DNA of 64,000 nt from Escherichia coli. Its GTDB lineage: Bacteria; Pseudomonadota; Gammaproteobacteria; Enterobacterales; Enterobacteriaceae. This document shows positions 10,692-37,788 of the stretch, one piece after another. The position numbers and the translations under genes are program-made. The stretch is from assembly GCF_013315695.1 (NCBI RefSeq), contig NZ_CP054353.1; one strand, 5' to 3'. Each line of letters starts with the position of its first letter. The first letter of the stretch is position 1. The notes beneath the pieces are model-generated. The model was not told where the DNA came from, did not search any database, and saw only the letters and a program-made list of their open reading frames with translations.

Positions 10692-10767
10692 GGCCCTTTA
10701 GCTCAGTGGTGAGAGCGAGCGATTCATAATCGCCAGGTCGCTGGTTCAAATCCAGCAAGGGCCACCA
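10692..10767 (+). tRNA. ileZ: tRNA-Ile2 (anticodon CAU, ileX/ileZ-like)
   Basis: 76 nt cloverleaf GGCCCTT...AAGGGCC-A-CCA; anticodon loop TTCATAA; close to the E. coli ileX sequence. Confidence 0.8.
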
Positions 10768-10774
10768 TCACATA

Positions 10775-10851
10775 CCGCCATTAGCTCATCAGGATAGAGC
10801 GCCAGCCTTCGAAGCTGGTTGCGCGGGGTTCGAGTCCTCGATGGCGGTCCA
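10775..10851 (+). tRNA. argN: tRNA-Arg (anticodon UCG)
   Basis: 77 nt; acceptor CCGCCAT/ATGGCGG; anticodon stem-loop CCAGC-CTTCGAA-GCTGG; T-loop GGTTCGAGTCC; 3' CCA. Confidence 0.8.
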
Positions 10852-10864
10852 TTATCTGTACCCT

Positions 10865-10941
10865 GCGTTATTAGCTCAGCCGGACAGAGCAATTGCCTTC
10901 TAAGCAATCGGTCACTGGTTCGAATCCAGTACAACGCGCCA
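10865..10941 (+). tRNA. argO: tRNA-Arg (anticodon UCU)
   Basis: 77 nt; anticodon loop CCTTCTAAG; T-loop GGTTCGAATCC; 3' GCCA; one acceptor-stem mismatch. Confidence 0.8.
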
Positions 10942-10980: not shown

Positions 10981-11433
10981 AAATGTCTCACAATTCAGAC
11001 GGTTGACAGTTGTCTGTTTTGCGGGGAGTTTGTTAAAAGAAACTGGCATGGTGAATCCCCCTGTGCGGAGGGGCAATCAGCAACTGGTGTTTTGTCACCG
11101 ACCCTTATCCTTTCTGTGCGGGTTCAGGTGCTGATACTGAACTCACCGGGAGGCACCCGGCATCATGTGCATGATGATACAGATACGCGGCTTTAGCCCC
11201 TCTCCGGAGGGGCTTTCTTGTGGGCAAAAAAAAGCCCGAGTGGGTTCGGGCAACAGCATGAGATATACATTTTTATAATCGAATGGATTTTAACCAGAAT
11301 TCATAAGGCTGCGCAACTGCGCGGTCTTTTTCGAATTGCGGGCTGTCGTCTCTCTTCTGCCATTGTCCTGTAACTTCCGGACTTCAGCCCGCTCCTTATT
11401 TTACTCACAATATTATCCCGGCCGGGAGGATTC

Positions 11434-15279: not shown

Positions 15280-15438
15280 GCAGAATATTTTGCTGAAAAA
15301 TAAGGCATGGCCACGCGGGCGGATAACACGAAATCCTGCGAACTGGCGAAACGTAAGTGAATAAAAGTAAAAACCCCGTTTGTTGGCACCAAGCGGGGTT
15401 TTGTGTTTCCTGACTCCGGAAAAGTCAAAGGAGAAAGT

Positions 15439-15576
15439 GTGTTTGATTTTAGCAAACTGATTCGGGAGATTCGAGTGATGGCTGAAAAATTATCCACCTG
15501 GAAGTTCATTCTTATCTGGCTGGTGTTTGTGATTATGGCCTCCGGTTATTTCATCGGTCAGATACGCTGGTGGTGA
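15439..15576 (+). CDS. Small hypothetical membrane protein (45 aa, GTG start) between endolysin and Rz
   Basis: AAGGAG RBS 6 nt before GTG 15439; hydrophobic core WKFILIWLVFVIMASGYFIG; stop 1 nt before the Rz start. Confidence 0.3.
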   Translation: MFDFSKLIREIRVMAEKLSTWKFILIWLVFVIMASGYFIGQIRWW

Positions 15577-25451: not shown

Positions 25452-25502
25452 TCCGTGAGCGGGGGCGAAATGCCCCCGTGTCTTTTTTCACAGGAGGCTG
25501 AG

Positions 25503-32430: not shown

Positions 32431-33174
32431 ATGACACAGACAGAATCAGCGATTCTGGCGCATGCCCGGCGGTGTGTGCCTGCGGAGTCGTGCGGCTTAG
32501 TGGTGAGAACGCCGGAGGGGGAGCGGTATATCCCTTGTGTGAATATCTCTGCAGAGCCGGAGGCGTATTTTCGTATTGCACCGGAAGACTGGCTGCGGGC
32601 AGAGATGCAGGGGGAGATTGTGGCACTGGTCCACAGTCATCCCGGTGGGCTGCCCTGGCTGAGCGAGGCTGACCGGCGGCTGCAGATAAAAAGCGCACTG
32701 CCCTGGTGGCTGGTCTGCCGGGGTGACATTCACAAATTCCGCTGCGTGCCGCACCTGACGGGACGGCGCTTTGAGCACGGGGTGACGGACTGTTACACCC
32801 TGTTCCGGGATGCATACCATCTGGCGGGGACTGAAATGCCGGATTTTCATCGCGAGGATGACTGGTGGCGCAACGGTCAGAACCTTTACCTGGACAATAT
32901 GGCGGTCACCGGCTTTTACCGGGTGCCCCTGTCCTCTGCACAGGCGGGCGATATTCTGCTGTGCTGCTTTGGTGCTTCGGTACCGAACCATGCCGCCATT
33001 TACTGCGGCAACGGTGAGCTGCTTCACCATCTGCCTGAACAACTGAGTAAACGGGAGAGGTATTCCGAAAAATGGCAACGACGAACGCATTCTGTCTGGC
33101 GTCACCGCCACTGGCACGCATCTGCCTTCACGGGGATTTGCAACGATTTGGCCGCCGCCTCAGCCTGTATGTGA
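32431..33174 (+). CDS. K: Tail assembly protein gpK (MPN/JAB plus NlpC/P60-like)
   Basis: 247 aa; JAMM-like motif EIVALVHSHPGG; lambda K position. Confidence 0.8.
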   Translation: MTQTESAILAHARRCVPAESCGLVVRTPEGERYIPCVNISAEPEAYFRIAPEDWLRAEMQGEIVALVHSHPGGLPWLSEADRRLQIKSALPWWLVCRGDIHKFRCVPHLTGRRFEHGVTDCYTLFRDAYHLAGTEMPDFHREDDWWRNGQNLYLDNMAVTGFYRVPLSSAQAGDILLCCFGASVPNHAAIYCGNGELLHHLPEQLSKRERYSEKWQRRTHSVWRHRHWHASAFTGICNDLAAASACM

Positions 33175-33752
33175 ACACGGCAGCGGAAGCCATTCGCGCC
33201 CTGTCGATGCAGATGCCGGGCTTTCGCCGTCAGATGAACGAAGGCTGGTACCAGATACGTATTGCCGGTGATGACACGGCACCGGAGGCGGTGTATGCCC
33301 GTCTTCACGAACAGCTGGGTGAGGGAACGGTCATCCACATTGTGCCGCGACTGGCCGGGGCCGGAAAGGGTGGACTGCAGATTGTGCTGGGGGCGGCAGC
33401 CATCGTGGGCTCTTTCTTCACGGCCGGAGGCTCGATGGCGTTATGGGGTACAGCCCTGAGTGCCGGTGGTTTTTCTGCCACCACGATGCTGTTTTCACTG
33501 GGTGCCAGCATGATACTGGGCGGAGTGGCCCAGATGCTGGCCCCGAAGGCAAAAACACCGGATTACCGCGCAACGGATAACGGCAGACAGAACACGTACT
33601 TTTCCTCGCTGGATAACATGATTGCCCAGGGGAACCCGATGCCGGTGCCTTACGGGGAAATGCTGGTTGGCTCCCGCCGTATATCCCAGGACATCAGCAC
33701 CCGTGATGAAGGCGGGGGCGGAAAGGTCGTGGTTATCGGGCGGCAGGGGTAA
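33072..33752 (+). CDS. I: Tail assembly protein gpI
   Basis: 226 aa; overlaps the K 3' end in another frame; Gly-rich hydrophobic C-terminal half; start uncertain. Confidence 0.65.
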   Translation: MATTNAFCLASPPLARICLHGDLQRFGRRLSLYVNTAAEAIRALSMQMPGFRRQMNEGWYQIRIAGDDTAPEAVYARLHEQLGEGTVIHIVPRLAGAGKGGLQIVLGAAAIVGSFFTAGGSMALWGTALSAGGFSATTMLFSLGASMILGGVAQMLAPKAKTPDYRATDNGRQNTYFSSLDNMIAQGNPMPVPYGEMLVGSRRISQDISTRDEGGGGKVVVIGRQG

Positions 33753-33961
33753 AAAGAATAAAAAAATCCCGCAGTGATCGCGGACAGGAACTGCGGGAGA
33801 GTTACGAAGATTAAGTGTAAGGAATTATTCTTATATCACGACAAAAAAATTAACGCAGAGAAATTATACGCGCCACAGTCAGTTTGTGAAAATGTGAAGA
33901 TATTCAGAATTTTTATGCCATTACCGGTTTTAACCAACAGGATTATCGGTGGGCATGAAAG

Positions 33962-33993
33962 AAAACCCCGGTATCTGCTGATACCGGGGTTTC
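33962..33993. terminator. Strong bidirectional hairpin in the I-J spacer
   Basis: AAAACCCCGGTATC-TGCT-GATACCGGGGTTTC (10-13 bp stem), T-rich downstream and A-rich upstream. Confidence 0.5.
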
Positions 33994-34095
33994 TCTTTAG
34001 CATGGCAGAAATGTGTTTCATGCTTTTCGGGCGAAGGATATCCGACTTCTGTACGGAATGGCAAGTGGCGGTTAATTTATTCAGGGGAAGGCTGT

Positions 34096-37000
34096 ATGGG
34101 AAAAGGTGGCGGTAAGGCACACACGCCTCGTGAGGCGAAGGATAATCTCAAATCCACGCAGATGATGAGTGTGATTGATGCGATTGGTGAGGGACCGATA
34201 GAAGGTCCGGTGAAGGGACTGCAGAGTATTCTGGTGAACAAAACCCCGCTGACGGACACGGACGGTAATCCCGTGATACACGGTGTGACTGCGGTCTGGC
34301 GTGCCGGGGAGCAGGAGCAGACACCACCGGAAGGCTTTGAGTCCTCCGGAGCTGAAACCGGACTGGGCGTGGAAGTGACGAAGGCAAAACCGGTGACGCG
34401 CACCATTACGTCCGCGAACATTGACCGCCTGCGGGTTACCTTCGGGGTGCAGTCACTGGTGCAGACCACGTCAAAGGGCGACCGTAATCCTTCCTCTGTC
34501 CGGATTCTGATTCAGTTACAGCGTAATGGCCGCTGGGTGACGGAAAAGGATGTCACCATTAACGGCAAGACCACCTCGCAGTTCCTGGCCTCGGTGATTC
34601 TGGATAATCTGCCTCCCCGGCCCTTTAACATCCGGATGGTCAGGGAGACGGCGGACAGCACCACGGACCAGCTGCAGAATAAGACGCTGTGGTCGTCATA
34701 CACCGAAATCATCGATGTGAAACAGTGCTACCCGAACACGGCCATTGTGGGGCTGCAGGTGGATGCGGAGCAGTTCGGCGGCCAGCAGATGACGGTGAAC
34801 TACCATATCCGCGGTCGCATCATCCAGGTGCCGTCAAACTATGACCCGGAAAAACGCACGTACAGTGGTATCTGGGACGGCAGCCTGAAACCGGCATACA
34901 GCAACAACCCGGCCTGGTGTCTGTGGGACATGCTGACTCACCCGCGCTACGGCATGGGAAAACGTCTGGGGGCGGCGGATGTGGACAAGTGGGCGCTGTA
35001 TGCCATCGGGCAGTACTGCGACCAGACGGTCCCGGATGGTTTCGGGGGGACCGAGCCGCGGATGACCTTTAATGCGTACCTGGCACAACAGCGTAAGGCG
35101 TGGGACGTTCTCAGTGATTTCTGCTCTGCGATGCGCTGTATGCCGGTATGGAACGGCCAGACGCTGACGTTCGTTCAGGACCGTCCGTCGGATGTGGTGT
35201 GGCCGTACACCAACAGCGATGTGGTGGTGGATGATAACGGCGTGGGTTTCCGCTACAGCTCCAGTGCCCTGAAGGACCGGCACACGGCAGTGGAGGTGAA
35301 TTACACCGACCCGCAGAACGGCTGGCAGACCTCCACGGAACTGGTGGAAGACCCGGAAGCCATACTGCGCTACGGACGCAACCTGCTGAAGATGGACGCG
35401 TTCGGCTGTACCAGCCGCGGTCAGGCCCACCGTGCCGGGCTGTGGGTGATAAAGACCGAACTGCTGGAAACGCAGACGGTGGATTTCACGCTTGGGTCAC
35501 AGGGGCTGCGTCACACACCCGGTGACATCATTGAAATCTGTGATAACGACTATGCCGGGACCATGACCGGCGGACGTGTCCTGTCCATCGATGCCGCCAG
35601 CCGTACCCTGACGCTGGACCGGGAGGTGACACTGCCGGAGACCGGCACGGCCACTGTTAATCTGATTAACGGCAGCGGTAAGCCGGCGAGCGTGGCCATC
35701 ACCGCACACCCCGCGCCTGACCGGATACAGGTCAGCACCCTGCCGGATGGTGTGGAGACATACGGTGTGTGGGGACTCTCCCTGCCGTCACTGCGTCGTC
35801 GCCTGTTCCGCTGTGTCTCCATCCGGGAAAACACGGACGGCACCTTTGCCATCACGGCGGTGCAGCACGTACCTGAAAAAGAAGCCATCGTGGATAACGG
35901 GGCCCGCTTTGAGCCGCAGTCAGGCACCCTGAACAGCGTTATCCCACCGGCAGTGCAGCACCTGACGGTGGAGGTGAGCGCAGCTGACGGCCAGTATCTG
36001 GCGCAGGCTAAATGGGACACGCCGCGGGTGGTGAAGGGCGTGCGCTTCAGTCTGCGCCTGACCAGTGGTAAGGGAACGGATGCCAGACTGGTGACCACCG
36101 CCATCACCGCAGACACGGAGCACCGTTTCAGCGGCCTGCCACTGGGGGAATACACCCTGACGGTGCGGGCCATTAACAGCTACGGCCAGCAGGGCGAACC
36201 TGCGACCACCACCTTCCGGATTAACGCGCCTGCAAAACCCGCCACCATTGAGCTGACGCCGGGGTATTTTCAGATAACGGCGGTACCGGTGCTGGCGGTG
36301 TATGACCCGACGGTGCAGTTTGAATTCTGGTTCTCAGAAAAACGCATCACGAACACGGCACAGGTGGAAAAATCTGCCCGTTATCTGGGGACCGGCAGTC
36401 AGTGGACTGTCCAGGGGAGCCGGATTAAGCCGGGGACGGATTTCTGGTTTTACGTGCGAAGCGTCAACCTGGTGGGAAAATCTGCTTTTGTGGAAGCCAG
36501 CGGGCAGCCCAGCAATGATGGTGAAGGGTATCTGGAAATTTTCCGGGGGCTGATAGATGAGACGCTTCTGGGGCAGGCACTGAAAGAGCGCATTGATGCT
36601 TCAGCGCTGCGTACGGAGGTCACGCAACTGGAAGAAGATATCCGTCAGCGGATGGACACGGATATCGCAGAAGTGACCCGGAAAATCGGGAAGGCGGAAA
36701 ACAGCCTCACGCAGCTGGTTGCGAAAAAGAATGAGGACCAGACACTGGCCATCGCGCAGGTGAGCCAGAAAGTGGACCGGGTGAGCAGTGAAATCTCACA
36801 GACTGTCAGCCAGGGGCAGTCAGAAAACGCCCGACAGATAGCACAGGTCCGCCAGTACGTGGATAAAAAAGGGAGTGAAATTACCTCGACCACGGATAAA
36901 AAGCTGGGTGACCAGGCCGTGACCATACAGCAAATCCAGCGGGTTCAGTCAGACACGCGCAATGAGCTGAATGCCATGTATATGCTGAAGGTGCAGAAAA

Positions 37001-37788
37001 CAAAAAACGGTATTCCCTATGTGGCCGGGATTGGCGCGGGGATTGAGGATGTTGATGGTCAGACCCTGAGTAACATTCTGCTGCAGGCCGATCGCATTGC
37101 GATGATTACCCCGGAGAACGGCAACACCACGCCGCTGTTTGTGGCGCAGGGGAATCAGCTGTTCATGAACGACGTGTTCCTGAAGCGACTGTTTGCGGTG
37201 AGCATCACGTCATCCGGCAATCCTCCGACGTTTTCCCTGACGCCGGATGGCAGGCTGACAGCCCGCAATGCGGATATCAGTGGAGCCATCACGGCGAATA
37301 CCGGCACGCTCAATAATGTCACCATTAACGAGAACTGTGTCATCAGAGGGAAACTGTCTGCAAACCAGATTGAAGGCGATCTCGTTAAAACAGTGGGTAA
37401 GGCTTTCCCCCGTGACTCCCGTGCACCGAAGCGTTGGCCATCAGGAACCATTACCGTCAGGGTTTATGACGATCAGCCGTTTAACCGGCAGATTGTTATT
37501 CCGGCGGTGGCTTTCAGCGGTGCCAGACATGAGCGGGAGAACAGCGATACTTATTCGTCATGCCGCCTGATAGTGAAGAAAAACGGTGCTGAAATTTATA
37601 ACCGTACCGCGATGGATAATACGCTGGTTTACAGTGGTGTTATTGATATGCCTGCTGGTCGCGGCCACATGACGCTGGAGTTTTCTGTATCAGCATGGTG
37701 GGTAAATGGCTGGTATCCCACAGCAAGTATCAGCGATTTGCTGGTTGTTGTGATGAAGAAAGCCACTGCAGGCATCACGATTAGCTGA
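34096..37788 (+). CDS. J: Central tail fiber / host specificity protein gpJ
   Basis: 1230 aa; lambda J-like size and position; fibronectin-like repeats in the middle. Confidence 0.9.

Follow-up and report, generated by a model that had tools for sequence, protein, structure and literature searches.

A predicted PasB-family small RNA gene and a terminator-like module between tail genes I and J of an Escherichia coli prophage

Two small RNAs (sRNAs) of pathogenic Escherichia coli, PasB and EcOnc22, are the closest described relatives of an element that we find in a 64,000-nt stretch of E. coli DNA (contig NZ_CP054353.1; hereafter the window), in the spacer between tail genes I and J of a lambdoid prophage. 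PasB is one of five "pathogenicity-associated" sRNAs found by RIL-seq (sequencing of RNA pairs joined through ligation) on Hfq in enteropathogenic E. coli (EPEC) O127:H6 E2348/69 (Pearl Mizrahi et al. 2021, PMC8550237). It is an 83-nt RNA (NC_011601 1466343-1466261, minus strand) that sits between E2348C_1436 and E2348C_1437 in the orientation "(> <) >" (PMC8550237, Table S6). Validated by Northern blotting, it is encoded antisense to I and J, within the gap that separates these two genes in prophage PP6 (PMC8550237). Deletion of hfq changed its level by a log2 fold change of -6.8 under the activating condition (about 100-fold) and -2.4 under the non-activating condition, in which PasB is commoner; it had 37 RIL-seq partners, was almost always the second RNA in the chimeras and has a U-tract of 7 (PMC8550237). 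No seed motif was reported for it, the term being absent from Table S7 of the same paper. EcOnc22, from prophage Sp15 of enterohaemorrhagic E. coli (EHEC) O157:H7 Sakai, is ~85 nt long on Northern blots, crosslinks to Hfq and is destabilised in the absence of hfq (PMC4104026, Table S2), and EcOnc23 (Sp14) and EcOnc24 (Sp11) have been listed as its homologues (Tree et al. 2014, PMC4104026).

In the window, I and J belong to a lambda-like, plus-strand tail operon and are 343 bp apart (33753-34095). As an initial annotation of this DNA had stated, the spacer is AT-rich and non-coding; its GC content is 0.37-0.46 compared with ~0.57-0.62 in the flanks, and we found no conserved open reading frame (ORF). 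The same annotation took I and J to be adjacent in lambda, which is inexact, as lambda has a 60-bp spacer with a hairpin of its own; the insert itself is absent from lambda, HK629 and PhiR49_2, and is therefore not a constant part of lambda-like I-J junctions. The locus is identical in ATCC 25922 (spacer at NZ_CP009072 3960539-3960881), where the same flanking genes are annotated and the gap carries no annotation at all. Some part of the 343 bp occurs in 1661 of 5426 complete E. coli genomes, annotated in none. The evidence below makes it very probable that the spacer is a two-module accessory insert in the tail operon, comprising an sRNA gene and a pre-J terminator module.

The sRNA gene and its promoter

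The PasB locus of E2348/69 occupies the same I-J gap as the window spacer, and the two spacers align through the terminator, the core and the promoter. The probe used for the PasB Northern blot, AATCCCGCAGTGATCGCGGAGCT (PMC8550237, Table S6), matches window positions 33765-33784 at 20 of its 23 bases, and the identity to PasB is 74%. Seven members of the family, with window-type alleles left out, were used to build a covariance model (E2348/69 PasB, four viral-contig variants, the Sakai allele and the allele of an Stx1a phage). Run over both strands of the 64 kb, it gave a single full-length match, at 33760-33856 on the minus strand, with 62.3 bits and E = 1.6e-9; this is the position at which the family is found in E2348/69 and Sakai, i.e., in the I-J spacer and on the strand opposite to the tail genes. 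In the consensus fold, a 5' stem-loop is followed by a conserved core that is unpaired and then by a terminator that is invariant. Kept in all alleles are the 5' GCGUUA, a U-run paired with an A-rich stretch, the unpaired core (..UCCUUA..UUAAUCUUC..) and a CCCGCAG/CUGCGGG stem with U7 after it. What we show is the homology of the gene, its synteny, its anatomy and its conservation.

The terminator of the predicted sRNA is hairpin 1. The initial annotation had recognised this hairpin by its CCCGCAG and CTGCGGG arms but placed it at about 33790-33820; its true place is 33768-33797, about 22 nt to the left. The arms, CCCGCAGT/ACTGCGGG, form an 8-bp outer stem of -15.7 kcal/mol (z = -4.1), and the fold energy was equalled by none of 200 shuffled sequences. 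On the minus strand CCCGCAGU...ACUGCGGG is followed by A and U7, against a minimum of four U residues for sRNA terminators in RIL-seq. On the plus strand there is no T-run; because the U-run is present only on the minus strand, hairpin 1 is not a terminator of the tail operon. The end of the sRNA gene lies 8 nt past the stop codon of I.

The elements of an Hfq-type module, i.e., a U-rich region, a terminator hairpin and a poly-U tail, can all be seen in the sRNA sequence, and as predicted this layout is the usual one for an Hfq-dependent base-pairing sRNA. We propose that module A (33753-33916) is a self-contained, reverse-oriented RNA moron, in which a sigma-70 promoter would drive a minus-strand sRNA of ~97 nt. 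By homology, this RNA would be stabilised by Hfq, and it would probably pair with mRNAs in trans via its conserved single-stranded core (..AAUUCCUUACACUUAAUCUUC..), positioned between the 5' U-run/A-run stem-loop and the terminator. It would probably be made in the lysogen, independently of the silent late operon and convergent with it. The features by which Juhala et al. (2000) defined morons are present: a promoter and terminator of its own, a deviant GC content, and extra DNA, the junction measuring 343 bp compared with 60 bp in lambda, HK629 and PhiR49_2. Among the explanations offered initially were a small RNA and the scar of a lost moron. In the left half the former is borne out by a complete, reverse-oriented gene of the PasB/EcOnc22 family with hairpin 1 as its terminator, and the latter fails, because what stands there is an intact, self-contained RNA moron; the moron idea was right in kind.

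EcOnc22, EcOnc23 and EcOnc24 map to the same position. In the current Sakai record their coordinates all fall within I-J spacers, antisense to the tail genes. The published coordinates (PMC4104026) refer to an older version of the Sakai sequence, and AgvB, used as an anchor, gives a shift of about +128 to +146. After this shift, the crosslink peaks of all three lie inside the PasB-like RNA of those spacers, and the Sakai allele has the terminator, the U-run and the UUAAUCUUC core in common with the family. EcOnc22-24 and PasB are therefore one family. We found no statement of this equivalence in the PasB table or in the available text of a 2026 survey (bioRxiv 10.64898/2026.05.13.724894). A further allele of the family was seen in phage Stx1a_EH182 (LC744189.1); it has the same terminator and UUAAUCUUC core, carries CCCCCUGUGG in place of CUCCUUAAC, and has degenerate -35 and -10 boxes (TTCTGT / TATCAT) with a 15-nt spacer.

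The predicted sRNA promoter (Table 1) agrees with the consensus at 11 of 12 positions, and no other sigma-70-like sequence in 20 kb of the late operon matches as well; possession of its own promoter, by prediction, is a property that the window RNA has in common with the PasB/EcOnc22 family. Exact copies of the 40-nt promoter block occur in more than 120 viral-contig stretches, and the block is invariant while the RNA body diverges. Within it, upstream of the -35 box and overlapping it, lies a CRP-like site, AAATGTGAAGATATTCAGAATT, which matches the consensus at 14 of 16 positions and is the only such site in the 64 kb, where 0.04 would be expected by chance. Across alleles the half-sites are kept with three different 6-nt spacers, and the distance from the site to the -10 box is a constant 24 nt, Sakai's allele included. 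Relative to the predicted +1 (33856), the centre of the site (33900.5) falls at -44.5, outside the standard activating positions (-41.5, -61.5, ...), although the start site is a prediction, so that the value could move by a few nucleotides. The sRNA Spf is repressed by CRP. PasB was more abundant in the condition in which Spf is low (PMC8550237). The promoter is discussed neither in the paper describing PasB (PMC8550237) nor in the available text of the later Pas paper (bioRxiv 10.64898/2026.05.13.724894). From these sequence features we tentatively suggest that the sRNA promoter may be under cAMP-CRP control. The promoter map, with its conserved CRP-like site, makes regulation directly testable.

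Table 1. Positions of the I-J spacer features and flanking genes in the window
Feature	Position	Strand	Basis
Tail assembly gene I (upstream flank)	33072..33752	+	ORF list; "tail assembly protein" from the Prokaryotic Genome Annotation Pipeline (PGAP) at the identical ATCC 25922 locus
Predicted PasB-family sRNA, ~97 nt	33760..33856	-	PasB alignment, probe match and covariance-model match; 5' end inferred from the -10 box, 3' end = U7 tract
Intrinsic terminator of the predicted sRNA (hairpin 1)	33760..33797	-	Terminator scan; fold z = -4.1; stem 33768-33775 / 33790-33797, then A + U7 (33766-33760)
Predicted sigma-70-type promoter of the sRNA	33863..33890	-	-35 TTCACA (33890-33885), 16-nt spacer, -10 TATAAT (33868-33863)
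CRP-like palindrome AAATGTGA-N6-TCAGAATT	33890..33911		Centred -44.5 from predicted +1
B-long module	33917..34095		Between promoter block and J start; assorts independently of the sRNA allele
Hairpin 2	33963..33992		13-bp perfect stem, 4-nt loop, A-tract upstream and T-tract downstream on both strands
Weak promoter-like site TTGCCA-18-TATCCT	34035..34064	-	9/12 positions, chance level; could drive a ~70-nt RNA ending at hairpin 2
Shine-Dalgarno GGGGAAGG plus J ATG	34084..34098	+	Direct sequence reading; gpJ annotation in ATCC 25922
Tail tip protein gene J (downstream flank)	34096..37788	+	ORF list; gpJ annotation in ATCC 25922

Hairpin 2 and the module upstream of J

The 40-nt promoter block, used as a query, gave 123 occurrences, which yielded 114 extended sequences, 57 of them distinct. 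They resolve into two parts: module A, composed of the terminator, the RNA body and the promoter block, and module B, running from the promoter block to the start of J. Cross-tabulation showed that the modules assort independently. The window-type RNA was combined with the long form of module B found in the window (B-long) in 45 copies, and with each of two short B types in 4; the E2348-type RNA was combined with B-long in 21 copies and with a short B of its own in 22. Records of Stx2c phages have only window 33761-33916 in common, which confirms the split, and the modules join at the invariant promoter block. Of the 5426 genomes, 1445 contain B-long, and 1441 of 1450 records have it at 99% identity or more. 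In the phage record Stx2a_1447 (AP012536.1 43618-44317), an IS66-family element directly upstream of J replaces the end of I, PasB and most of the spacer, leaving ~50 nt of a short B module.

Hairpin 2 lies in B-long, and its location, stem and flanking A/T runs are all as first described. Its arms (33963-33975 / 33980-33992) fold with -27.1 kcal/mol (plus strand) or -26.0 kcal/mol (minus strand), and z is about -8 for both. It is the sole perfect hairpin with arms of at least 13 nt in 27.5 kb of the late region, and the stem contains a 10-bp GC-rich core. The terminator that had been proposed as one explanation of the spacer fits this hairpin, which looks bidirectional, having T-runs of its own on the plus and minus strands.

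Unrelated stem-loops occupy the same place in other phages. In all short B alleles, and on the plus strand only, ACAGGCAYC-loop-GRTGCCTGT precedes TGTTTTT; the 60-bp spacer of lambda, HK629 and PhiR49_2 carries AAACCGCC-N4-GGCGGTTT and then TGTCATTT; and HK022 has GCCACC-TTCG-GGTGGC and then T7, immediately before J. A plus-strand terminator-like stem-loop before the J ribosome-binding site is therefore a general feature of such operons, arising from non-homologous sequences. Hairpin 2 would be the B-long version of this stem-loop; a role for it on the plus strand we judge to be about as likely as not. Two more strong plus-strand terminator-like hairpins were seen in the late region, at 25459-25479 and 15370-15402 (GCGGGGGCG-AAA-TGCCCCCGT followed by T6, and AAAACCCCG...CGGGGTTTT, respectively); together with hairpin 2, they suggest that the late transcript is punctuated by stem-loops.

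In the model that we favour, module B (33917-34095) brings with it hairpin 2 and both the leader and the ribosome-binding site of J. Hairpin 2 would most likely serve as an intrinsic terminator or an RNA-stabilising stem-loop for plus-strand transcripts before J, an element present in lambda and in all the other I-J spacer alleles examined that keep a spacer, and Q-modified polymerase would read through it. Its symmetry would let it also stop minus-strand transcription coming from J before this reached the sRNA promoter. A plus-strand promoter search of the spacer found none, and a plus-strand sRNA ending at hairpin 2 was dropped as a candidate for that reason.

Several points weigh against this two-module reading. 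The sRNA of the present strain and allele, its 5' end included, is a prediction from sequence. For PasB, the conserved TATAAT box predicts a start 15 nt upstream of the published 5' end (E2348/69 1466343), which was estimated from read coverage and lies where the 5' U-run ends. This could mean that the primary PasB transcript has ~98 nt, with coverage falling off within the U-run, or else that the RNA undergoes processing. Covariation in the RNA is almost nil, with one compensatory pair and an invariant terminator, so that support for the structure comes from thermodynamics and conservation. Rfam 15 contains no family for PasB-type RNA. At hairpin 2, both T-tracts are interrupted by C (plus strand, TTTCTCTTT; minus strand, TTTTCTTTC), and a scan for consensus terminators did not return it. 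The simple scan probably missed it because the T-run is absorbed into an extended stem; a separate scan found, on both strands, at least 6 T among the 9 nt that follow the core stem. Diverged or out-of-context relatives of B-long were found neither by distant blastn against phages, nor by local blastn against I-J cassettes, nor by a hairpin scan of viral contigs, and since B-long is also nearly invariant, it allows no evolutionary or covariation test of hairpin 2. Finally, hairpin 2 is dispensable in at least some prophages, because a natural 46-bp deletion between AGAAA repeats (IMG/VR contigs L076 and L103, variant B10; equivalent to window 33970-34015) removes it precisely and leaves the rest of B-long intact. 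We infer that the RNA is expressed in the present strain and depends on Hfq, and likewise infer its 5' end, its targets and the activity of the terminators.

Rfam 15 was also searched with 33000-35000 at E <= 1 and with the whole window at the gathering threshold, and gave no family for the spacer; the match with the best E-value in 33753-34095, PK-repZ, had 18 bits against a threshold of 44.

The I-J slot and alternative readings of the insert

A search with the J N-terminus gave only near-identical loci, and junctions were instead surveyed by tblastn over phage records together with six fetched junctions. The I-J junction of Sakai Sp10 holds a reverse-oriented sodC, that of HK022 gp22 plus a reverse-oriented srb, and that of phi80 morF, making this junction a general slot for reverse-oriented accessory genes. 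In Sp10 (L216 13485-14335; NC_002695.2 1963484-1964334), the terminator of sodC directly adjoins a PasB body and terminator of the window type; the sodC cassette stands in place of the canonical PasB promoter, and the CRP-like site has gone with it. PasB of Sp10 may be made as a 3'-untranslated-region (UTR) product of sodC, or be silent.

The Sp10 arrangement, with sodC and its terminator directly upstream of a PasB body, is what B-long might once have looked like if it were a non-functional scar, i.e., what is left, at the terminator and promoter ends, of a reverse-oriented moron after deletion of its gene. The slot does host reverse-oriented morons (sodC, srb), B-long contains a promoter-like site and, with nothing in between, a terminator on the minus strand, and hairpin 2 can be lost. 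However, B-long resembles neither the sodC, srb or morF cassettes nor anything outside the I-J context, it is nearly invariant across 1445 genomes, it provides the ribosome-binding site of J, and a plus-strand hairpin before J is general even where there is no moron, as in lambda. The scar suggested by the initial annotation, which could apply only to this right-hand module, is thus unlikely there.

The promoter-like site might instead be active, in which case B-long would encode a second sRNA of ~70 nt (~34028 to 33958), antisense to the J leader and ended by hairpin 2, and the insert would be a tandem two-sRNA moron. Consistent with this are the 9 of 12 matching positions of TTGCCA-18-TATCCT with an AT-rich stretch upstream, the minus-strand T-run on hairpin 2, the 76-nt minus-strand fold of -31.9 kcal/mol (z = -7), and the extreme conservation of B-long; the short B alleles lack a minus-strand T-run, so that the two-way symmetry is specific to B-long. 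Nevertheless, a 9/12 match is no more than chance would yield (0.9 expected in 1.1 kb; 13 in 20 kb of shuffled sequence), the z-score is due entirely to the hairpin, the U-tail is interrupted, and the hairpin is removed by a natural deletion; nor did we find an Rfam match or a published sRNA at that position. We consider a second sRNA improbable. Among Sakai candidates from Hfq crosslinking and analysis of cDNA (CRAC), EcOnc54 and Sp6 are not at I-J junctions, and no copy of B-long was located in Sakai, so that these data are uninformative about an RNA from B-long.

The sRNA of module A is perfectly complementary to the late I-J mRNA, and its gene lies wholly inside the late transcription unit, convergent with it. 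It might therefore act mainly in cis, pairing with tail-operon transcripts of its own prophage, or of related phages that are co-resident or superinfecting, and causing their cleavage or being sponged by them, instead of regulating host mRNAs in trans; several related prophages in one genome can carry alleles at the same site (Sakai Sp10, Sp11, Sp14 and Sp15). Set against this, the 37 Hfq-mediated partners of E2348/69 PasB are mostly coding sequences or 5'UTRs of other genes, typical RIL-seq behaviour of a trans-acting RNA, and the ribosome-binding site of J is ~230 nt from the RNA, with no overlap. Mainly cis action has, in our view, little chance of being correct. The same small chance attaches to a joint reading of the spacer as a module under the control of carbon status, in which a cAMP-CRP-dependent PasB allele, its regulon distinct from those of the EPEC and EHEC alleles, also acts in cis on tail-operon mRNA, and a second ~70-nt antisense RNA (34028 to 33958) covers the J leader; were it true, both RNAs would gate the expression of J, lom and stf, or interfere with related phages that share the site.

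A small protein is almost certainly not encoded: a 113-aa plus-strand ORF (33774-34115) and 94-aa and 44-aa minus-strand ORFs do exist, and the region is labelled "hypothetical protein" in one phage record, but none of the three has a Pfam match or any PHROG match beyond insignificant ones (E = 0.1-0.2), none has a Shine-Dalgarno sequence, every one crosses the hairpins, their length and frame shift between spacer variants (113 aa becoming 77 aa or none), and 1-nt and 46-nt indels that break them are tolerated. The spacer thus contains neither a conserved ORF nor a match to a protein family, and its ORFs are spurious, as they had looked at the outset. The reading that we retain remains an sRNA gene followed by a pre-J terminator module.

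Distribution and comparison with known systems

The window-type RNA is present, unannotated, in 799 of the 5426 complete E. coli genomes (~15%), with 636 records at 99% identity or above. When published PasB was used as the query in a megablast with word size 28, 956 of the 5426 genomes were hit, every one at 90% identity or above, and the window allele was not reached. In its available text, the 2026 survey (Zhu, Shabalina & Storz, bioRxiv 10.64898/2026.05.13.724894) used a word size of 28, described PasB variants that differ by a few nucleotides, and reported ~1,100 hits. As a word-28 search misses the window allele, that survey, judged from this text, very probably did not count it, and the distribution reported for the family is probably underestimated by nearly half. 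Among species-representative genomes scanned with the promoter block, matches were confined to E. albertii and one contig of a metagenome-assembled genome labelled "Collinsella sp." (JAIJJM010000066.1). This 8.7-kb contig has an E. coli prophage I-J spacer with B-long 100% identical and, binned as Collinsella (Actinomycetota), is probably a mis-binned or contaminant E. coli phage fragment.

Carriers of the unannotated sRNA gene include reference and clinical ExPEC (extraintestinal pathogenic E. coli) strains, e.g., ATCC 25922, CE10, and the sequence type lineages ST1193 and ST648. The altered core of the window allele would imply a different set of targets. PasB in EPEC, EcOnc22-24 in EHEC and the window allele, three separate entities, are hereby linked as one family at one phage slot.

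Other RNA genes were seen in the window. Rfam matched STnc100 at 11017-11225 on the plus strand (132 bits) and, adjoining and convergent with it, an AsxR-like sRNA at 11229-11281 on the minus strand (63 bits, exactly at threshold), the pair lying just downstream of three tRNA genes (10692-10938). This arrangement is the classic sRNA pair at the PR' moron site of Stx-type lambdoid prophages. The prophage carries at least three sRNA genes. Two tandem units of isrK and C4 antisense RNA, 863 nt apart (isrK at 1724-1800 and 2587-2663; C4 at 1822-1909 and 2688-2775), look like a duplicated immunity RNA region of the P1/P7 type. An OrzO-P RNA antitoxin at 52220-52295 on the minus strand (99 bits) suggests that a type I toxin-antitoxin locus, zor-orz, lies past the end of the prophage that carries the tail fibre.

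The window RNA is a divergent, unannotated member of a known prophage sRNA family, and it overturns nothing in current understanding. Among systems of other sequence, the I-J hairpin of lambda (lambda 15445-15504) resembles hairpin 2 in its GC-rich stem, its T-rich tail on the plus strand and its position just upstream of the J ribosome-binding site; unlike hairpin 2, to which it is unrelated in sequence, it has a T-run on the plus strand only and lies in a 60-bp spacer with no sRNA gene. The protein morons sodC, gp22, srb and morF are likewise extra DNA with signals of its own between I and J, and sodC and srb are reverse-oriented like the window sRNA, but they encode proteins, whereas the product of the window gene would be an RNA. 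AsxR and AgvB (Rfam RF02703 and RF02702) are also prophage-borne, Hfq-binding, terminator-ended sRNAs that are convergent with late transcription and occupy a moron slot; theirs, however, is the PR' site downstream of Q, they are 51-60 nt long and unrelated in sequence, and they act as sponges of core sRNAs.

The closest likeness is to the family itself. With E2348/69 PasB the window allele has in common the I-J slot, the antisense orientation, the terminator stem followed by U7, the 40-nt promoter block and the overall architecture; it differs in that 26% of the RNA is not identical and the longest exact match is 25 nt, in its 5' stem-loop and the flanks of the single-stranded core, and in a 5-nt insertion in the terminator loop. 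EcOnc22, EcOnc23 and EcOnc24 likewise lie in I-J spacers on the antisense strand, with the same terminator and the same UUAAUCUUC core, whereas the Sakai RNA is a third allele, which has another -35 region, 5' part and core flanks and is paired with a short B module in a 240-bp spacer.

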